Positions 53,459-63,470 of a stretch of 64,000 bases of DNA are shown here, piece by piece. The notes under the pieces are model-generated. The model saw only the letters and a program-made list of their open reading frames with translations. It was not told the origin of the DNA and made no database searches. Within the stretch, counting starts at the first letter, position 1. Every line of letters starts with the position of its first letter. Source of the stretch: Thioalkalivibrio paradoxus (GTDB lineage Bacteria > Pseudomonadota > Gammaproteobacteria > Ectothiorhodospirales > Ectothiorhodospiraceae). The stretch lies in NCBI GenBank assembly GCA_011390565.1, contig JAABSC010000010.1, forward strand, positions 3,107 to 67,106, written 5' to 3'. The position numbers and the translations under genes were made by a program.

Positions 53459-56275
53459 CTACGCGTTCCCGACGCGGAGTTCATCCCGATCCTCGGTGCG
53501 ACGATCTCGGAGCAGTATTTCAACCAAAACCGAACCGTCTTCCGGCGGTTCCAGGTGGAAGCCCACCTTGCGGCAAACACGCTGCATGCCCTCGTTCTCG
53601 AAGAGAATCTCGGCCGTGATGCGCACGATTCCCTCTTCCCGTGCGATGTCCGTGAGACGTCTGAGCAGTTCGGTCCCGATCCCCTGCCGCTGATCCGCAT
53701 CGTTGATCAGCATCGAGAATTCCGCGTGGCTGCTGTCGTGCAGCCGACTCCAGCGTCCGACGCCGAGGATTCGATGTTGTCCATCAGTGGGGTCCCGATA
53801 GTCCACCACCAGGGCCATCTCGCGGTCATAGTCCGTGAAGCAGATGCGCCTGAGTCTTTCGTGCGCGACCCGCTGGCCCATCTGCATGATCTGGAAATAG
53901 CGGAGATAGACACTGCGTTCCGAGAGCGTCTGGTGGAAACTGACGATCAGAGGCTCATCCTCGGGCCGGATCGGTCGTATCGTGACCGTCCGCCCATCGT
54001 GCAGCGTCCATTCGGACACGTACTGGGCCGGATACGGTCGGATCGCCGGCGCCGGCAAACCGGTGAGGTCGTAGTCGGTGCCGTACAGCACCACGCGTGC
54101 ATCCAGGGCGTTGAACGTGCCCGTGCCCGCATCCCCGTTGCCCGGCGTGGCAAGAAGCGGGTTGATGTCGAGTTCGCGGATCTCCGGGTGCTCGACGATC
54201 AGTTGACTGAAGCGCACCAGCAGGTTTTCGAGTTGGGTCAGATCGACCGCGGGACGCCCGCGTACGCCCTTGAGGGCCTCGTGGATGCGCGTCTGTTCCA
54301 TCAACCTGCGCGCCAGGGTCGTGGTCAGGGGTGGCAGGGCCACCGCGGTGTCGCGCAGCACCTCCACCATCTGGCCGCCCGCGCCGAACAGCAGCACCGG
54401 CCCGAACTGGCTGTCCGGGCTGCTGCCCAGTATCAGCTCGTAGCTTTCGTCGCGGTCCACCATGGGTTGCACGGTCACGCCCTGAAAATGATGCGCACCG
54501 GCCCGCTCGGAGACGGATGCCTGAATTCCGGCAAAGGCCTCGGCAACCGCCCCGGCGTGCGTCAGGTTCAGGCGCACGCCGCCCACGTCGGTCTTGTGGG
54601 TCAGGGTCTCCGAGTGCAGCTTCACCACCACCGGGTAGCCGATGGCCTCGGCTTCCCGCACCGCGTCTTCGGCGGTTGTGGCAAGGCGTGTCTCGACCAC
54701 CGGGATGCCATACGCCTGGAGCAGTGCCTTGGACTCGAACTCGGTGAGCAGCGTCCGCCCGGTCCGTCGTGCCGCTCCCAGCAACTGGCGCACGCCCGCC
54801 TGGGCCACACCGTTTTCTTTCCGGCCCATCGCAAGGGTGGGCGTCTCATAGAGGGCCTGCAGGTTGCAGTGATGGCGCCACATCAGGTTGAACAGGTGTG
54901 CTGCGGCATCGGGTTGCGCGTAGGTGGGGATGCAACCCTGGTTCAGGATACTGGTGCCGGGATAAACCTCGGCGCCCCCCATCCAGCTGGCGAGCACGGG
55001 CTTTTTCAATCCTTCGGCCTCGCACTTGATCAGCTCTGCCGTTCGGGTCGGATCGGTCATGGCCTGCGGAGTCAGGATCACGAGCATGCCATCGGAATTC
55101 GGGTCTGCCGCTGCACGCTCGAAGGCCAGCGCATACCGCTCCGGGTCCGCGTCGCCGAGGATGTCGATGGGGTTGCCATGACTCCAGTGTGGCGGCAGCA
55201 CCTCGTTCAATGCGCTGACCGTGTCTTCGTGCAGCGGGGTCAGTTCGCCTCCGCCCTGGATCAGCGTGTCCGTACTCAGGACGCCGGGTCCGCCAGCATT
55301 GGTCAGGATCGTCAGGCGCGGACCCTGGGGCAGATGGACCTGTTTGGCGAGGACTTCCGCCACGTCGAACATTTCCGCGAGGGAATCGACGCGCAGGACG
55401 CCGCAACGGCGGAACGCGGCATCGAGCACACGATCGCTCCCGGCGAGCGAGCCGGTATGGGAGGCGGCGGCCTTGGCGGCGGCCTCGGTTCGGCCGGCCT
55501 TGATGACGATGATCGGCTTCGTCAAGGCCACCTCGCGGGCCGCGGACAGAAACTGGCGCGCATCCCCGATGCTTTCCATGTAGATGACGATGCTGCGGGT
55601 GTGCGGATCATCGCCCAGGTAGTAGATGAGATCGCCCCAGTTCACATCCAGCATGGAGCCGATCGACGCGAAGTTGCTGAAACCCACGTTCTCGCGGCGG
55701 CTCCAGTCCAGCACGGCGGTGCCAATCGCGCCGCTCTGGCTGATGAATGCGACATGGCCCGGTTGCGCCATCACGCCGGCGAAGGTCGCGTTCAATCCGG
55801 TGCGAGGGCTCATCACGCCCAGGCAGTTCGGCCCGATCAAGCGCATCGCACTGTTGTGCAGGGCCTGGCGGATCTCGTCTTCCAGGGCGACGCCGTCGGG
55901 ACCGATCTCGCGAAAGCCCGCCGAGATCACGATCGCGCCCCGTACGCCATTGGCGACACATTCACGGATCACGCCGGGTACGGTGGGAGCGGGCGTCGCC
56001 ACGATCACGAGATCCACCGTGTCCGGGACCTCCGCGATGGACGGGTAGGCCCGGATGCCGAGTACGCTGCGCTTCCTGGCGTTCACCGGGTAAACGGTAC
56101 CGCCGAAGGGGTGGCTGAGCAGGTTCCAGAGCAGGGTGCGGCCAACGCTTCCGGGCCGGTCGGTGGCCCCGATGAGGGCGATGGACCGCGGCGTGAAAAT
56201 CGCCCGCAGGTGCAGGTAGTCGGAACGCAGGATGTCGTAGGAGGGATCGGTGTTTGCGGCGCGGCTGACAGTCAT
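53459..56275 (-). CDS. NDP-forming acyl-CoA ligase-like protein fused to a C-terminal GNAT acetyltransferase (Pat/Pka family)
   Basis: [31 protein letters not shown]-grasp, ELDINPL, then IRPIRPED...[10 protein letters not shown]; start MTVSRA at 56275. Confidence 0.93.
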
Positions 56276-56518: not shown

Positions 56519-59341
56519 CTATTGTTCCGCGGATTGACCTCGTGTCCCCGCCCGGGACGGGTCGGCCACCGGAACCCCGGGCACGAGGAAACGGGATTCG
56601 AAGGTCTCGACCGGCAACGGCTTGCTGAAGAGGTAACCCTGCATCTCGTCGCAGCCCAGCAGGCGCAGAAGTCGCGACTGCTCCTCCGTTTCGACGCCCT
56701 CCGCCACCACGTTGAGATTGAGCGCATGCGCCAGGGTGATGATGGTCGTCACCAGCGCCTGTCCCTGGGAGGAGTGCGTCATCGCCCGGACGAACGATAG
56801 ATCGATCTTCAGCGTGTCGACCGGCAGCTTCGCCAGGTAACTGAGCGACGAGAAGCCGGTGCCAAAGTCGTCGATTGCGATCGTCACGCCCATGGCCCGT
56901 ACCGCCCGCAGGGTGGCGATGGTCTGTTCCACGTCCGCCATGATCAGGCTCTCGGTGAGTTCCAGCTCAAGGCCTGCCGCAGCGCGAACATCGACGCTGA
57001 GCGCTTCCTCGAGCTCGGCGATGAACCCGATGCTGCGCAGTTGCAGCGCCGATACGTTCACCGCGACGCGTACCGCAGGCAGGCCCGAGTCGCACCAGCG
57101 CAGGTGATCCGCAATCGCCTTGTTCAGCGCCCAGCGTCCCGCCGCGAGGATGAGCCCGGTCTCCTCCAGAAGCGGGATGAACCGGTTCGGCGGCACCTGC
57201 CCGGTACGCGGATCGTTCCAGCGGATCAGCGCCTCGACACCCACGAGCGTGCCGTTCGTGAAGCTCACTTTGGGCTGGTAGTGCAGCACAAACTCCTCAC
57301 GGTCGATCGCCTGGCGCAACTGGCTCTCCAGGATCAGTTTGCCGGCCACGGCTTCGGTCATCTTCCGCGAATAGAACAGGTAGCGGTCGCCACCGGTCTT
57401 GGCATTCTTGAGCGCCGCCTCGGCGTTTCGGAACAGGACCTCGGCTTCCTTGCCGTCCTCGGGAAACAGCGCGATGCCGGCCTTGGCGGCGACACGATAG
57501 ACGTTTTCCTGCAGTTGGAACGATTGGTTATCGAAGACTGCCACCAGCCTCTCGAGCCGCAGCGTCATGTCCTCCTTGGTCCGTATTTCGGGCAGCACGA
57601 CCGCGAACTGGTCCGCCCCCACCCGCGCGAGCAGACGGGCGTCCCCGGTGAAGTGGGTGAGTCGCTCGGCCACGTGCCGCAATAACGCGTCGCCGGCCCG
57701 GCGGCCGAAGCTGTCATTGAAGTTCTTGAAATGCTCGAGGTCCATCAGAAAGATCGCGAGCGAATGCCCGGCGGTTTCGGCGACCTTCATGTGCTGCATC
57801 ACGCGCTCGATGAACAGGGTTCGGTTCGCCAGCCCGGTGAGCGGATCGTAGTACGCGAGTGCGTCGAGCTGGTCCCGCTTGCCGATATGGTCGATCGCGA
57901 ACGCGATGTCGTCGGCCAGTTCGTGCAGAAGCTTCAGTTCCCCCTCGTCGAAGAAGTCGGTTTCACGCGCATACAGGCCGAGCACGCCGACCACCGCATC
58001 GTCGATGATCAACGGCAGGCTGACGAGCGAGCGGATTCCCTGCTCGAGATGAGCACGCTTGTCGAGGATCCGCGAGTCGTTGGCGACGTCGTTGACCACG
58101 ACAGCCGTGCGTTCGCGCACCGCGACTGCGGAGGGCTCGTAACCGTTCGGCGCGTCGTCCTGAAGCGTCATGCGCGCTTTGACATCGACGAGAAGCTGTT
58201 CGGTCCCCGCCGAGGCAGCCGGCTCAAGCTTCATGGAAGTGAGATCGGCAAGGCCGATCCACGCCAGGCGGAATCCGCCGGCCTCGACGGCGATGCGGCA
58301 GGCTTCCTTGAACAGCTGGTCGCGGTTGCGCGCGCGTACAATCAGGCCGTTGACCTGGCTTAACACCGCGTTTACCCGGTTCAGGCGCAGGATATGGAGT
58401 TCGGCGCGTTTGCGCGCGGTGATGTCGGTGGCGACTCCGGCGATACGAACGATGCGGCCGGTGGCGTCGCGCACCGGGAAGTTGCGGGACTCGATCCAGC
58501 GGATCGACCCATCCGGGCGCAGAATTCGGTATTCCAGTTCGAACGTGCCCGTCCGCAACCCGTCCTGCGTGTTCTTCAGCGTCGTGGCACGGTCCTCGGG
58601 GTACAGGGTGTTGGCCCACGAGTCCGGATCGGCGTACAGGCTCTCGCAGCTGCGGCCCCAGATCTCCGCGTAGGCGGGGCTCACGTACAGGATGCGGCCT
58701 TTGCTGTCGCGCAGAAAGAACACGTCGCGGATGTTCTCGGCCATCTCGCGGAAGCGCGCCTCGCTGATGCGCAGGGTCTCTTCTGCACGCCTTTTTTCCG
58801 AGATGTCGATGTGCATCACGACCGCGCCGTTCACGCGCTCGCCGGCTAACGGCGCGACGCTCATCAGGAACCAGCGTTTCTCGGTCGGGGCGTTGCAGGG
58901 GTATTCGAGCATGAACTGCTTCTTCTCGCCCGCGAGCACCGCGCGGATGCCGGCGGCGGCCTCGTGTGCTTCGGCAGAGTCCTTTCCACGCGCCCGGTCG
59001 CAAACCGCGAGGTAGTCGACGCCGACTTCATAGCCCGGGGGCTGTCCGGCATTGTCGTCGCCGAAATGGCGCCACGCCTCGTTCACGGAAACAATGACGC
59101 CCTGGGCGTCGAGCAGGACAATGTGAGCCGGAAGCGCGTTGAGCACGGCGGCCTGCTTCGTCACCTCGATGTGGCGCAGCCGCTCCTGTGCGCTGAGGAG
59201 CAGGAAGGGCCTGCCGTCGGCGTCGCTCACCGAGTCCACCTCGCCCTTGGTGAGCCACTCCAGGCGCTGCCCGGTCTCGTGCAGCGTGGCAATGAGCGCG
59301 GAGATTTCCTCTTGCGCAGTCCCTTTCGTGGAACGCTTCAT
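56519..59341 (-). CDS. PAS-PAS-GAF-GGDEF(degenerate)-EAL protein, probable c-di-GMP phosphodiesterase
   Basis: YDPLTGLANR, GADQF at the GGDEF position, VEALIRW, DDFGTGFSSL, LKID, AEGVE, MQGYLFSKP. Confidence 0.93.
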   Translation of the reverse strand: MKRSTKGTAQEEISALIATLHETGQRLEWLTKGEVDSVSDADGRPFLLLSAQERLRHIEVTKQAAVLNALPAHIVLLDAQGVIVSVNEAWRHFGDDNAGQPPGYEVGVDYLAVCDRARGKDSAEAHEAAAGIRAVLAGEKKQFMLEYPCNAPTEKRWFLMSVAPLAGERVNGAVVMHIDISEKRRAEETLRISEARFREMAENIRDVFFLRDSKGRILYVSPAYAEIWGRSCESLYADPDSWANTLYPEDRATTLKNTQDGLRTGTFELEYRILRPDGSIRWIESRNFPVRDATGRIVRIAGVATDITARKRAELHILRLNRVNAVLSQVNGLIVRARNRDQLFKEACRIAVEAGGFRLAWIGLADLTSMKLEPAASAGTEQLLVDVKARMTLQDDAPNGYEPSAVAVRERTAVVVNDVANDSRILDKRAHLEQGIRSLVSLPLIIDDAVVGVLGLYARETDFFDEGELKLLHELADDIAFAIDHIGKRDQLDALAYYDPLTGLANRTLFIERVMQHMKVAETAGHSLAIFLMDLEHFKNFNDSFGRRAGDALLRHVAERLTHFTGDARLLARVGADQFAVVLPEIRTKEDMTLRLERLVAVFDNQSFQLQENVYRVAAKAGIALFPEDGKEAEVLFRNAEAALKNAKTGGDRYLFYSRKMTEAVAGKLILESQLRQAIDREEFVLHYQPKVSFTNGTLVGVEALIRWNDPRTGQVPPNRFIPLLEETGLILAAGRWALNKAIADHLRWCDSGLPAVRVAVNVSALQLRSIGFIAELEEALSVDVRAAAGLELELTESLIMADVEQTIATLRAVRAMGVTIAIDDFGTGFSSLSYLAKLPVDTLKIDLSFVRAMTHSSQGQALVTTIITLAHALNLNVVAEGVETEEQSRLLRLLGCDEMQGYLFSKPLPVETFESRFLVPGVPVADPSRAGTRGQSAEQ

Positions 59342-59631
59342 TCGGGCTCGCCGGGCAGTCCGAGAGCCTGTATCAGCAGCACCCTCTCGCTCAGGGATCC
59401 CACGATCCGCACGGGAGCCGGCAGCGGGCCGAGTTTGATCAATGTCGGCGTCATGAAAATACCATCGGCCAGCGCCCGCTGAGGCTCGCGGAATACGTCC
59501 ACAACCTCGATCGTATGTCGACCCTCCAGATATTCCCGACAGAGCGCGCCGAGGTTGGACGTAGCCCGCGCCGAGTTCGACGCGTGACCGGCCACATAGA
59601 GCCGGAAAGTGAATTTTTCGCGCTCCATCAC
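59338..59631 (-). CDS. kaiB: KaiB-family protein
   Basis: FRLYVAG.ASNS, IEVVDV..EP..A, TPTLIK, VRIVGSLS. Confidence 0.92.
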   Translation of the reverse strand: MMEREKFTFRLYVAGHASNSARATSNLGALCREYLEGRHTIEVVDVFREPQRALADGIFMTPTLIKLGPLPAPVRIVGSLSERVLLIQALGLPGEPE

Positions 59632-61412
59632 GGCTTGTCCTGTTTCTTTCTGGCTCCGCCGGGATCGGCGCCGCGCAACTCGTCCAGGCGCGAGTGCTTG
59701 GTCACGAGACTGCTTTTGCGCTCGACGTTCGTCCGCGCAAGCAGCGCTTTCTCGACCCTCTTGGCCTCGAGTTCCACGCCCAGCGCCCTCAGCTGCACCT
59801 CAAGCTCTGCCACCTCGGCTTCGATTTTTACGCGCTTGAGTTTTTCCGCAGCGTCTGCCATACCTGCCGCCGCATGCTCGCCGCTTTCCTTCTGCCAGCG
59901 CAGCGTACCCATGAGCACCTGTCCTCCCAGGCTGTAGGTGTCTGCAAGAGTCACGCCCTCGTCGCTGAGGATCAGTTCGCGCACCTGGTTTGAGTGATCC
60001 GTACCGCGTGACTTGATGATCGACAGCCCGCGGTTGCGTTCTCCCGCCTGCACCACGTCGCTCAGATGGATCGAGGTATCGGCGAGCGTGGAAATCTGCC
60101 GTGCGGTGCTGCCTTCGGGGGGAGTGGAGGTCTCGTTGAGCAGACTGCTGCACAGCAGCGTGATGCCCTCGGCCTTCGACCAGTTGATGAGCCGCTCGGC
60201 CACGCTGTTGGCGCTCATCGAGTCCCCGGGATTGTGCCAGGCCGACACCGGGTCGATCACCAGGCAGCGTGCCTTGTGCTCCTTCGCGAGCGCCAGGATA
60301 TTCGCGAAGTAGATCTCCGCATTCCCGTTGGTGATGCGCACGGACGCCATGCGCAGCTGCCCGCTCTTAACGTAGCGCGCGAGGCGAATCCCGACCGAGG
60401 CGAGGTTGCGGATGACCTCGTTGGCATCGGAATCGAAGGTCGCGAACAGCGTGCGCTCGCGGCGCTTGCACGCGGCTTGTGCGAAGGCGCCGCACAACGT
60501 GGTCTTGGCGGTACCTGGAGAGCCCTCGATCATTATGGTCGCGCCGCGGTAGTACCCACCGTCCAACATGGTATCGAGTCGCTGCACACCGCTGGAGACG
60601 CGCTCGTCGCTGATTTCGAGCGAGCCGCGCTCGAGCGGCCGTGCGACTTCGACCTCGAATCCACGTCTGCCGATGATGAACGGCGACTCGTTCTCGTCGA
60701 AGCTCGTTCCCCGGTACTTCTGAACCCGCAGGCTGCGCTGCGACACGCCCAGCACCACCTTGTGGTTCAGCGTCACCCCACAGTCCACCATGAACTGCAT
60801 GAACGCGAGGGGCTCGCGGCCGATGGCGGAAATCTCGTCGCCGGCCGCCTTTGCGGTGATGATTGCGGTCAGCTCGCGCGCGAGCAGCCAGTCGTGCAGT
60901 CGATAGATCTCCGTGCGCCTGGCGGTCGGGTCGGCGAGCAGTGCAAGCAGGACATCGAGGGCGTCGAAGACGATGCGCCGCGCTCCGGTCGACTCGATCA
61001 GTGCCTGCAATGCGGCCAGCATGCCCCCGAGATCGAAGTCACCCGACTGGATCAGATCGGCCGCCGGCTGCGCATCAACGAAAGAGAGCTTTCCTTCCAG
61101 CTCGGGGAGATTCCAGCCGAAGCTTTCCACGTTCGCGCGAATGCGCTTCGAGTGCTCTTCGAAGGCAACGAAAATGCCGGGTTCCTTCATTTCGCGCAGG
61201 CCGTGCACGAGGAACTCGAGCGCGAAGAGGGTCTTGCCCGAGCCCGGTCCGCCCAGCAGCAACGTGGTGCGTCCGCGCGGGAGCCCCCCCCGAGTGATGT
61301 GATCGAAGCCGACGATGCCGGTCGGCGCCTTTCGGGGCGAGCCGCTTACGGACGTGTCGGTATCGGGTTTGCGGGAAGCGTTCACGCGGTCTGGTCCCCC
61401 ACTGTTGAGCAT
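59628..61412 (-). CDS. kaiC: KaiC-family double-domain ATPase/autokinase
   Basis: PTGIVGFDHITRGGLP, GPGSGKT, KYRGT, GSPGTAKT, ISTLADT, KSRGTDHSNQVRE; start at ATG 61412. Confidence 0.93.
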   Translation of the reverse strand: MLNSGGPDRVNASRKPDTDTSVSGSPRKAPTGIVGFDHITRGGLPRGRTTLLLGGPGSGKTLFALEFLVHGLREMKEPGIFVAFEEHSKRIRANVESFGWNLPELEGKLSFVDAQPAADLIQSGDFDLGGMLAALQALIESTGARRIVFDALDVLLALLADPTARRTEIYRLHDWLLARELTAIITAKAAGDEISAIGREPLAFMQFMVDCGVTLNHKVVLGVSQRSLRVQKYRGTSFDENESPFIIGRRGFEVEVARPLERGSLEISDERVSSGVQRLDTMLDGGYYRGATIMIEGSPGTAKTTLCGAFAQAACKRRERTLFATFDSDANEVIRNLASVGIRLARYVKSGQLRMASVRITNGNAEIYFANILALAKEHKARCLVIDPVSAWHNPGDSMSANSVAERLINWSKAEGITLLCSSLLNETSTPPEGSTARQISTLADTSIHLSDVVQAGERNRGLSIIKSRGTDHSNQVRELILSDEGVTLADTYSLGGQVLMGTLRWQKESGEHAAAGMADAAEKLKRVKIEAEVAELEVQLRALGVELEAKRVEKALLARTNVERKSSLVTKHSRLDELRGADPGGARKKQDKP

Positions 61413-61796
61413 GGATTCCCCGACCAATTATTTCGTGTGAGCGCGATTCCGTATGTGCGGTAAGCAACGTATGACAGCGCGCCTCCCAGCACGTCGACCC
61501 TGCGCGGGACGGCGGGGCAGGGGTGGGCCCTGCTTTCGCGGGCGCGCGCCCGTCGCTTGGGAATGGTCGGGCACACGATGGGCTGAATGTGTCGGAGAAA
61601 CGGTGGCTTGTGTTCGGTAGCGCACGGAAATGCTTTCTCCCGATTCATATCCTTTTCCAACGACAACTCGAATCTCGGGAAGCTTTCGCGACTCATCGCA
61701 AGGGACGCAAGCATGAGCTGCTGAAGTCGGTGGGTTCGACTGCAGGAGTAGTCGAAACGATATGTCATCACCACACACTACTTTGTCGAGGGCGCT

Positions 61797-63470
61797 ATGT
61801 TGATAGCCAGACTTTGTATTCTTTCCGGGGCGCTGATGTTGAGCACGAGCGCGATCGCCCAGCAGAATCTGCCGGACGCGGGGGGTCAGCTTCAGCAGAT
61901 CAGACCGGGTCCGTCCATCGAGCCCCCGCCCCCGGAGTTCCGTTTTCAAGAACGCAGTTCCCCCGAAGCGCCTGCCCCGAGCGACGTGCGACTGCTCGTC
62001 AACTCGCTGCATGTGACCGGTCATACCTTGTTCACCGAAGACGAACTGCTCGCAGCCACGGAGTTTGTTCCGGGACGGGAGCTGTCGCTTGCCGATCTTC
62101 AGGTCCTGGCGGCGAGAATTTCTGCCTACTATCAGGAACGCGGCTTTTTCGTTGCTCAGGCCTACATTCCCGCCCAGGAAATCGTGGACGGCGCCGTCAC
62201 GATCGCCGTACTCGAAGGCCATTTCGGCGATATCACACTGCGCAACGAATCGGGTCTTTCCGACCGACGCGTGCGGACCATTCTCGATGGGCTGGAGAGC
62301 GGCGACACGATCGCCCTGCAGCCTCTCGAAAGGCGGCTACTGCTTCTGTCGGATGTTCCCGGCGTGGTCGTGAGTTCCACCCTGGCGCCCGGAGCGGCGG
62401 TGGGCGAATCCGATCTGATCGTCTCCGTGACGCCGGGGCGCCGCGTGACCGGCAGTGTCGAAGCGGATAACGCCGGAAGCTATTACACCGGTCAGAACCG
62501 TATCGGCGGCACGGTCAATTTCAACAATGTGACCGGCAACGGCGACGTCGCATCCCTGCGTGGATTGACGTCGGGTTCGGGAATGCAATATGGACGCGCC
62601 ACGTATCAGATCCCCCTGGGAAAGGGGAATGTCGGCATTTCCTACACCGCGTTGGACTACGAACTCGGCAAGGAACTCAGTGTTCTGGATGCCCACGGCA
62701 CGGCGCGAATCGTCGGCCTTTATGGCAGCTATCCCCTGATCCGTTCGCGCAACACCAATCTCTACCTGCTGGGGGGATACGACGACAAGCGGTTTGATGA
62801 TCGCGTCGATGCGACGTCGACGATTACGGAAAGGAAGGTTCGGGTCGGAAGCCTGGGTGTCGCCGGCAACCACCGGGACCAACTGGGTGCCGGTGGTTGG
62901 ACCAGCTACTCCGTCATTGGGTATTCCGGTGACGTCGACATCATTACGCCGGAGGCGCTGGCGTTCGATCAGCAGACGGCCCGGACCGACGGTGGTTTTT
63001 CAAAAATCCAATATGAACTGGCGCGCACGCAGAGTCTGACGGAAACGGTCTCTTTTCTCGCTTCGATCAACGGACAGTTTGCCTCGGGCAATCTGGACAG
63101 CTCCGAGAAAATCGGCATGGGCGGCCCGTATGCAGTGCGCGGATACCCGGTGGGCGAAGGCTTTATGGACGAGGCGCACATCGTTCACCTCGAATTGCGC
63201 AAGCGTCTGAGGTTTTTCGATACGAGCCCTGGCCAGTTGCATGTGTTGGGTTTTTATGATTACGGAAGGGGCACCATCAACAAGGACCCCTGGACCGACG
63301 AAGACAATCACAGGAATTTGCGCGGCGCGGGCGCAGGGCTCATCTGGGAGGATTACGGCAACTACAGGTTGAGTGTCACGTACGCGGAGCGACTCGGTAG
63401 CGAGCCGGTGACCTCGATTCCGGATAACCCCTCCGGTCAATGGTGGTTGCACGCCATCAAATATTTCTGA
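61797..63470 (+). CDS. ShlB/FhaC/HecB-family outer-membrane transporter (TpsB)
   Basis: Signal peptide, POTRA (ARISAYYQERGFFVAQAYIPAQEI), VRGYP loop, C-terminal aromatic residue (KYF). Confidence 0.93.
   Translation: MLIARLCILSGALMLSTSAIAQQNLPDAGGQLQQIRPGPSIEPPPPEFRFQERSSPEAPAPSDVRLLVNSLHVTGHTLFTEDELLAATEFVPGRELSLADLQVLAARISAYYQERGFFVAQAYIPAQEIVDGAVTIAVLEGHFGDITLRNESGLSDRRVRTILDGLESGDTIALQPLERRLLLLSDVPGVVVSSTLAPGAAVGESDLIVSVTPGRRVTGSVEADNAGSYYTGQNRIGGTVNFNNVTGNGDVASLRGLTSGSGMQYGRATYQIPLGKGNVGISYTALDYELGKELSVLDAHGTARIVGLYGSYPLIRSRNTNLYLLGGYDDKRFDDRVDATSTITERKVRVGSLGVAGNHRDQLGAGGWTSYSVIGYSGDVDIITPEALAFDQQTARTDGGFSKIQYELARTQSLTETVSFLASINGQFASGNLDSSEKIGMGGPYAVRGYPVGEGFMDEAHIVHLELRKRLRFFDTSPGQLHVLGFYDYGRGTINKDPWTDEDNHRNLRGAGAGLIWEDYGNYRLSVTYAERLGSEPVTSIPDNPSGQWWLHAIKYF

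Follow-up and report, generated by a model that had tools for sequence, protein, structure and literature searches.

Based on its gene order, domain composition and conservation, the three-gene locus described here is judged somewhat likely to encode a KaiA-independent KaiBC module with a c-di-GMP phosphodiesterase (PDE) as its built-in output. All three genes lie on the minus strand of the window, that is, the whole 64-kb stretch of DNA that was analyzed, and comprise kaiC (61412–59628; 594 aa from ATG 61412, with TTG 61427 as an alternative start; two RecA-like KaiC domains), kaiB (59631–59338; 96–97 aa from GTG 59631 or ATG 59628; PF07689, 64.5 bits) and a sensor c-di-GMP PDE gene (59341–56519; 940 aa). 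Open reading frames and Pfam assignments bore out the first-pass annotation of this DNA as far as the three genes and their positions are concerned. Of the two ATGA stop/start overlaps that it reported, the one at the kaiB/PDE junction is genuine, whereas the kaiC/kaiB junction reads GTGATG, corresponding to a 4-nt GTGA overlap with the GTG 59631 start or a 1-nt TGATG overlap with the ATG 59628 start. The operon promoter is presumably located in the 384-nt intergenic region (61413–61796) between kaiC and a divergent tpsB-like gene, where no match to the sigma-70 consensus was found, and inspection of the sequence downstream of the PDE gene gave no convincing terminator. A look-up among RNA-seq runs returned none that contains the locus. 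When about 35 of the window's 45 likely genes were scanned with Pfam (the other ten or so being mostly short ORFs), neither KaiA nor a histidine kinase or response regulator was detected, in line with the earlier statement that kaiA, a SasA-type kinase and a response regulator are absent; the remaining scanned genes were housekeeping genes. A Pat-type acetyltransferase gene found downstream was rejected as a member of the Kai–PDE system because its likely start (ATG 56275) lies 243 nt past the PDE stop and because orthologous loci carry no such gene.

The kaiC-kaiB-PDE arrangement is a compact unit conserved across phyla, and what is conserved directly behind kaiB is the N-terminal module of about 190 residues with which the PDE begins. 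Among the 80 closest KaiC loci, 72 were informative in having sequence past kaiB, and in 70 of these, from several phyla, the module opens the gene directly after kaiB, nearly always with an overlap of −4. In the reciprocal direction, metagenome loci found by searching with the module had kaiB immediately upstream in 76 of 80 cases, and at least 62 of the 80 also contained kaiC. Recurrence at these frequencies in genomes and metagenomes is far beyond chance, and the module is almost exclusive to the position right after kaiB; module genes apart from kaiBC were seen at four loci (L084, L135, L147 and L155). The complete triplet with 4-nt overlaps was also found in Ectothiorhodospira lacustris and in one Gammaproteobacteria MAG, in both of which the flanking genes differ. 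A neighborhood survey for the triplet had been proposed with the first-pass annotation, for which non-conservation was to count against a Kai–PDE link, and the survey found the arrangement conserved. An exact look-up in public assemblies returned no identical copy of the window PDE.

The arrangement is thus widespread, and it has been catalogued previously. De Luca et al. 2011 (PMC3164672, Fig. 4) recorded genes for histidine kinases or GGDEF/EAL proteins behind kaiC-kaiB; by its described contents, that paper gives domain contexts only. The description of the system as undescribed therefore does not hold, the more so as KidA, a GGDEF/EAL protein of Synechococcus elongatus (Synpcc7942_1859), binds fold-switched KaiB (PMC9478674). 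Relative to the described contents of PMC3164672, the present analysis puts numbers on the shared N-terminal module, the coupling by 4 nt, the specificity in both search directions, the CII Asp-Ser pair of KaiC and the degenerate GGDEF domain.

The module consists of an N-terminal extension, which is the candidate Kai-docking element (59341–59135, minus strand; PDE residues 1–69), and PAS1 of the PAS_4 type (59134–58802, minus strand; residues 70–180) with conserved C114 and C149. The extension was predicted by AF2 to fold as helix/β-hairpin/helix (H9–30, E37–39, E45–47 and H49–69), and the model of the whole helix-hairpin-helix and PAS module has a pLDDT of 86.8. Conservation within the protein peaks in the extension (0.72–0.84 over residues 21–80), and that of the module is on par with that of KaiB. 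The first-pass annotation had overlooked this module as the Kai-linked element. A PDB sequence search with the module yielded no meaningful match (E > 0.07), and Foldseek with its model retrieved generic PAS folds alone (TM ≤ ~0.5), neither result hinting at a cofactor or partner. A plasmid search with the module recovered the PAS core only, without the extension and with no kaiBC nearby; relatives of the PAS core, which are short stand-alone proteins or are fused to GerE or GGDEF domains, do not adjoin kaiBC. Generic multi-PAS proteins swelled the hits of the representative-library search, which yields no family size.

The enzyme behind the module varies. In genomes, approximately 40 outputs are GGDEF-EAL proteins, approximately 13 are histidine kinases and 1 is a combined histidine kinase and EAL protein; in metagenomes, 41 are GGDEF-EAL proteins versus 8 histidine kinases. 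Overall, about three quarters of the outputs are GGDEF-EAL proteins and the others are hybrid histidine kinases. Judging from these domain arrangements, the Kai-linked element is the N-terminal module of about 190 residues rather than the EAL domain, and histidine kinases can stand in as the output. We tentatively propose, with less assurance than the assignment of the PDE as output, that the helix-hairpin-helix of about 70 residues and PAS1 may together form an uncharacterized, dedicated adaptor for docking to KaiB or KaiBC; that this adaptor may be how KaiBC systems lacking KaiA generally connect to their outputs in several bacterial phyla; that c-di-GMP hydrolysis rather than two-component phosphotransfer may be the predominant output of the clade; and that the clade may work with its altered CII active site, which has Asp-Ser in place of Glu-Glu.

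The remainder of the PDE follows the PAS-PAS-GAF-GGDEF*-EAL order that had been read from the DNA, with the domains recovered by Pfam, and the AF2 model of the full-length protein has a pLDDT of 79.6. PAS2 (58774–58412; residues 190–310; PF08447 and PF00989) and GAF (58330–57866; residues 338–492; PF13185), both delimited with the model, precede GGDEF (57856–57374; residues 496–656) and EAL (57322–56585; residues 674–919), all on the minus strand. The GGDEF domain carries the signature GADQF and no RxxD I-site; the motif check thus found no GG(D/E)EF signature of a diguanylate cyclase, and this domain is degenerate across the main clade (GADQF, GADHF or DADHF). The EAL domain retains EALxR, N, ELTE, DDFGTG, KID, EGVE and QGY, motifs that are conserved with conservative changes at most in 38 relatives, and superimposes on active EAL structures with a TM of ~0.9 in Foldseek. 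With a degenerate GGDEF and a complete EAL site, the protein is therefore expected only to degrade c-di-GMP, and the third gene should encode a dedicated c-di-GMP PDE whose GGDEF site is dead.

A precedent for contact between such a protein and KaiB is available in KidA, the N-terminal PAS region of which binds fold-switched KaiB directly, and its authors proposed a link from the Kai state to c-di-GMP (PMC9478674). Like the window PDE, KidA has a multi-PAS N-terminus followed by GGDEF and EAL, a likeness of architecture. The two proteins differ in that KidA is a member of the KaiABC circadian clock found by co-IP, whereas the window PDE is an operon partner of kaiBC, and in that KidA, which contains four PAS domains but lacks a GAF, retains the residues on which GGDEF activity and EAL activity depend. 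The same precedent lends itself to the reverse reading, in which the PAS-PAS-GAF protein is a KidA-like input to or modulator of the timer that, bound to fold-switched KaiB, tunes the kinetics of KaiBC, or brings in redox, light or oxygen signals, while its EAL domain is run by its own sensors and not by the Kai state. The PAS domains of KidA alone shorten the clock period, GGDEF and EAL being dispensable for that effect (PMC9478674), and the window PDE has three sensor domains as well as the conserved C114 and C149 in PAS1. However, the EAL catalytic residues are conserved, selection on the output domains is clear, and a module that heads different enzymes is what one would usually see where an input domain controls an output. 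We regard the modulator reading as unlikely; it is compatible with the assignment of the PDE as output.

The proposal that the timer itself works without KaiA is based on the features of KaiC. The window KaiC matches PF06745 twice (E 9e-88) and exceeds the cutoff of NCBIfam PRK09302 (449 bits versus 408), whereas its score against TIGR02655, the cyanobacterial circadian equivalog, is below the cutoff (235.5 bits versus 546); on these scores the protein is a KaiC but not an ortholog of the cyanobacterial clock protein. Its best PDB match is Rhodobacter sphaeroides KaiC (8DBA, E 1.8e-100), and the alignment reaches residue 564 of 594, across the coiled-coil region of a helical, coiled-coil-like C-terminal extension of about 90 residues with a heptad-like tail (59900–59631, minus strand). 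Such an extension is a feature of KaiA-independent KaiC2-type proteins (PMC10076222). The KaiBC hourglass of R. sphaeroides (8DBA, 8FWJ; PMC10076222) has no kaiA and shares with the window the kaiC-kaiB order, the KaiB family and a C-terminal coiled-coil extension of KaiC (~50–90 residues). The window KaiC therefore appears most like the KaiA-independent R. sphaeroides type, its C-terminal extension included, and by analogy kaiA would not be required for a KaiC of this type. The window KaiB matches 4KSO, 5JWO and 8FWJ in the PDB, scores 60 bits against the NCBIfam KaiB equivalogs, below their cutoff of 110, and has Ala at the position of S. elongatus G88. The gene after kaiB encodes a GGDEF*-EAL protein here, whereas a related alphaproteobacterial operon, from Bradyrhizobium, encodes a PAS histidine kinase and a response regulator (PMC3899966).

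The Walker motifs of the window KaiC are GGPGSGKT and GSPGTAKT (Walker A) and RIVFDALD and CLVIDPVS (Walker B), those of CII being intact. S441 and T442 (60092–60087, minus strand) are the counterparts of the S431/T432 phosphorylation pair and align with the Ser-Ser pair of 8DBA, so that CII has a Ser/Thr pair of predicted phosphosites; the first Ser is present in all common clade variants, and the second position is T, A or E. D327 and S328 (60434–60429, minus strand) occupy the position of the CII catalytic Glu-Glu, where FDS aligns with the FEE of 8DBA, whereas CI has FEE; the Glu-Glu pair is thus found in CI only. F-D-[S/T/A] is the common CII form across 82 clade members, in which the CI pair remains EE. 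Since Asp-Ser replaces Glu-Glu in CII, a phosphorylation cycle like that of R. sphaeroides is not to be assumed. These features, along with the variable second phosphosite, are in keeping with a KaiC that is not a time-keeper, namely an ATPase switch that senses stress or energy and goes through no phosphorylation cycle, and whose nucleotide state the PDE reads via KaiB; in R. sphaeroides, it is the post-hydrolysis ADP state of CI that governs the binding of KaiB, and the effect of phosphorylation is marginal (PMC10076222). The constant Ser at the S431 position and the intact CII Walker motifs argue against this possibility, as does the fact that Asp may still serve as the catalytic base. It is accordingly viewed as rather improbable, slightly more so than the modulator role, and it would be a variant of the KaiBC–PDE output proposal without contradicting it.

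Evidence for contact, beyond shared expression, may be sought in the evolutionary distances of 58 loci. Distances of the N-terminal extension correlate with those of KaiB (r 0.59) and KaiC (r 0.54), versus r 0.13 for its own GGDEF and r 0.16 for its own EAL, and once KaiC is controlled for, a partial r of 0.40 with KaiB is left; these mirror-tree correlations are confounded by the adjacency of the genes on the DNA and by non-independent pairs. Judged by these distances, the first ~68 residues of the PDE appear to have evolved in step with KaiB and KaiC and not with the enzyme's own catalytic domains. Although operon membership alone indicates just co-regulation, the idea that one promoter merely sets the amounts of Kai and PDE proteins that never touch is given only a slim chance, because the module is specific to its position downstream of kaiB and is retained across output swaps, equals KaiB in conservation, varies together with KaiB and KaiC and not with its own catalytic domains, and is joined in frame to KaiB and the PDE in one metagenomic case (P0029), which may be a frameshift artifact.

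A possible mechanism is proposed for the KaiBC–PDE unit. KaiC may autophosphorylate without KaiA, and fold-switched KaiB may be captured on CI in the ADP-bound, post-hydrolysis state, both as in R. sphaeroides; this capture could provide a timer or an energy-state switch that is reset by the ATP/ADP ratio. The PDE may then use its N-terminal module to dock onto the KaiB–KaiC complex or fold-switched KaiB, as KidA does via PAS, and docking could be relayed along the PAS-PAS-GAF helical spine to alter EAL activity. In this proposal, c-di-GMP levels would therefore track the Kai state. The direct gating of c-di-GMP degradation and the control of a sessile/motile switch that the first-pass annotation put forward are conjectural. 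PAS1, PAS2 and GAF could add redox, light or ligand input, the degenerate GGDEF domain could bind GTP as an allosteric activator, and docking of the PDE could in turn influence the kinetics of KaiB, as is the case with KidA.

To our knowledge, only the oscillator side of KaiA-less KaiBC systems outside cyanobacteria has been dissected, in R. sphaeroides. The present locus, together with some 150 relatives, suggests a testable output that is co-encoded with the timer; the output protein has a recognizable Kai-linked module and, in roughly three out of four cases, is predicted to be a c-di-GMP PDE. Biochemistry can thereby draw on a defined construct (PDE residues 1–69 or 1–190) and a defined readout (c-di-GMP hydrolysis). 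If the proposal is true, daily or energy-state timing would be tied to biofilm and motility decisions in bacteria of soda lakes, soil and sediment.

In cyanobacteria, the KaiC-binding histidine kinase SasA likewise has an N-terminal Kai-docking domain that heads an output responsive to the clock state. In SasA, docking to KaiC is the task of a KaiB-like thioredoxin fold, whereas the N-terminus of the window PDE is a helix-hairpin-helix followed by PAS, and a SasA-type N-terminus (KaiB-like thioredoxin fold with a histidine kinase) was not found in this protein; in addition, the window has a separate KaiB and its predicted output is c-di-GMP hydrolysis. Foldseek matches of the PDE model include DosP, PA0575 and MorA, the closest structures being E. 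coli DosP (E 1e-52) and the P. aeruginosa GGDEF-EAL protein PA0575 (42% identity). DosP and the P. aeruginosa proteins PA0575, RbdA and MorA have PAS sensors upstream of a GGDEF-EAL tandem, like the window PDE, but all are without its N-terminal extension, and we know of no Kai link for any of them. The structure entries of PA0575 and PA0861 (RbdA) contain bound GTP.

The kaiC (61412-59628), kaiB (ending at 59338) and 940-aa predicted phosphodiesterase (PDE; 59341-56519) genes lie adjacent on the minus strand as three open reading frames. This arrangement, with the PAS-PAS-GAF-GGDEF*-EAL architecture of the third product, had been read in the first-pass annotation and was borne out by the ORFs and by Pfam and NCBIfam assignments. 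KaiC matches the Pfam KaiC domain twice (E 9e-88) and scores 449 bits with NCBIfam PRK09302, whose cutoff is 408; KaiB matches PF07689 (64.5 bits), and the PDE has PAS, PAS, GAF, GGDEF and EAL domains. The accompanying claim of two ATGA overlaps was half right because, on inspection of the sequence, the kaiB/PDE junction is indeed ATGA and the kaiC/kaiB junction is GTGATG, where the two genes overlap by GTGA when GTG is taken as the kaiB start codon and by a single nucleotide when ATG is. The reported absence of kaiA, a SasA-type kinase and a response regulator held among the ~35 of 45 likely window genes covered by Pfam scans, which turned up no KaiA, histidine kinase or response regulator, the remaining ten or so ORFs being mostly short; the scanned genes are housekeeping only (mutS, recA, alaS, aspartokinase, EF-G, sdhAB, SMC, ligA and others).

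In the AF2 model of the PDE (pLDDT 79.6), a helix (residues 9-31), a hairpin (37-47) and a second helix (49-69) precede PAS1 (72-179), PAS2 (207-306), GAF (340-492), GGDEF (507-656) and EAL (684-919) domains linked by long helices, and the top structural matches are DosP, PA0575 (solved GTP-bound), MorA and RbdA. The PDE should hydrolyze c-di-GMP and not make it, because the set of EAL catalytic motifs is complete, the GGDEF signature reads GADQF, and motif inspection found no I-site in the GGDEF domain. The first ~190 residues, comprising the helix-hairpin-helix and PAS1, form a module whose most conserved stretch is residues 21-80. PAS1 (58802-59134) carries C114 and C149, invariant or nearly so in homologs, and the motifs YLxVCD and EYPCHSP; the cysteines hint at redox sensing or at covalent attachment of a cofactor, and a fold search returned generic PAS matches only.

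The kaiC-kaiB-PDE triplet with 4-nt overlaps also occurs, with orthologous PDEs and different flanking genes, in Ectothiorhodospira lacustris and one Gammaproteobacteria MAG. A genome scan with KaiC gave 361 relatives, of which the closest 80 (62-72% identity) span Gamma- and Betaproteobacteria, Verrucomicrobiota, Acidobacteriota and Gemmatimonadota. Among the 72 of these loci with sequence past kaiB, the gene immediately following carries the module in 70, almost always with an overlap of -4, and its product shares 51-81% identity with the window PDE over the first ~190 residues. In the reverse direction, a metagenome search from the module found kaiB directly upstream at 76 of 80 loci and kaiC as well at no fewer than 62; the survey of kaiC-kaiB-EAL neighborhoods proposed earlier recovered a conserved triplet. 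A few module-bearing genes lack kaiBC next door, and the PAS core alone has more distant relatives in unrelated gene contexts. At locus L016 (11425-13289), no module gene follows kaiB directly; two tandem module copies are found 3.4-4.7 kb downstream, with an unrelated GGDEF-EAL gene ahead of them.

Behind the module, the genome loci encode ~40 GGDEF-EAL proteins, ~13 hybrid histidine kinases (HisKA-HATPase-REC-Hpt by Pfam), one histidine kinase that also has an EAL domain, and three broken genes; the metagenome loci encode 41 GGDEF/EAL proteins against 8 histidine kinases. In a minority clade of Kai-linked proteins (L021, L034, L047, L058, L061, L064 and L067), the RxxD I-site, GGDEF and EAL motifs are all intact, and these proteins may be bifunctional instead of phosphodiesterase-only. 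When pairwise distance matrices were compared across 58 complete loci, the N-terminal extension (the first ~68-69 residues) correlated with KaiB (r 0.59) and KaiC (0.54), and its correlations with the GGDEF and EAL domains of the same protein were just 0.13 and 0.16. Between those two domains r was 0.86, and controlling for KaiC left a partial correlation of 0.40 between extension and KaiB. Furthermore, the metagenomic protein P0029 (L003, 8001-12170) joins KaiB, the module and PAS-GAF-GGDEF*-EAL in a natural in-frame fusion with no kaiC nearby. It may be a Rosetta-stone fusion, or else the assembly may have introduced a 1-nt frameshift where the stop and start codons overlap. In our view, kaiC and kaiB together with a candidate Kai-docking N-terminal module make up the conserved unit, and the output attached to it is either a phosphodiesterase for c-di-GMP or a histidine kinase.

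Among solved structures, KaiC is most similar to the KaiC dodecamer of R. sphaeroides (8DBA, E 1.8e-100), with an alignment that takes in the C-terminal extension as far as residue 564 of 594. In R. sphaeroides, this extension forms a coiled coil that leaves the A-loop exposed and frees autophosphorylation from any need for KaiA, and KaiB binds the CI domain when CI is in the ADP, post-hydrolysis state (PMC10076222). The phosphosite pair is S-S in that protein and S441/T442 in the window KaiC. Unexpectedly, the catalytic Glu-Glu pair, present in both CI and CII of R. sphaeroides KaiC, is replaced by Asp-Ser in CII of the window KaiC (D327/S328; 60429-60434). F-D-[S/T/A] is the common CII form across 82 clade members, in which the CI Glu-Glu pair is retained and every Walker motif is intact. 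This pattern suggests that the kinase or ATPase chemistry of CII is altered throughout the subfamily; because of the Asp-Ser site, a normal phosphorylation cycle is not to be assumed, and a KaiC that switches with its nucleotide state must be kept in view as an alternative. The window KaiB matches solved KaiBs and has Ala (A88; 59362-59364; family consensus LQALGLE) at the position of S. elongatus G88. Since G88A is one of two mutations that lock KaiB in the fold-switched state (PMC9478674), the window KaiB may favor the binding-competent fold.

Conservation, architecture, active-site status and co-variation are established in this analysis; binding, the direction of control and any physiological output we infer, and the order of events proposed below is modeled on R. 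sphaeroides KaiBC and on KidA, the S. elongatus PAS-GGDEF-EAL protein whose PAS domains bind fold-switched KaiB (PMC9478674). The state of KaiC, that is, the CI nucleotide and possibly CII phosphorylation, would govern capture of fold-switched KaiB. The N-terminal module could then dock the PDE onto KaiB or the KaiBC complex, and the helical PAS-PAS-GAF spine may relay the signal to the EAL domain.

The gene context, initially considered undescribed, was already known: De Luca et al. (PMC3164672) record histidine kinase or GGDEF/EAL genes downstream of kaiC-kaiB, and the KidA paper notes PAS genes in an operon with kaiBC and proposes a bridge from Kai to c-di-GMP (PMC9478674). A literature search found no experimental test of a kaiC-kaiB-GGDEF/EAL operon. 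Added here are the common N-terminal module with its two-way kaiB specificity, the 4-nt coupling seen at nearly every locus, the finding that dedicated phosphodiesterases predominate among the outputs of this clade, and the Asp-Ser substitution in CII; the kaiC-kaiB-PDE hypothesis is well defined and testable at the bench.

Downstream of the PDE gene on the same strand lies a gene for a Pat-type protein acetyltransferase (53459-56275, minus strand; an NDP-forming acyl-CoA synthetase-GNAT fusion), most likely starting at ATG 56275, 243 nt past the PDE stop, with no convincing terminator in between; its position beside kaiBC is not conserved at other loci. On the upstream side, divergent from kaiC, is a ShlB/FhaC-type two-partner-secretion transporter gene (61797-63470, plus strand; POTRA and ShlB domains), whose TpsA partner may sit past the window end. 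The window has a G+C content of 65%, the nearest named relative of the operon is that of E. lacustris (KaiC 72%, PDE 77%), and sediment and soda-lake metagenomes contain sequence near-identical to the window.
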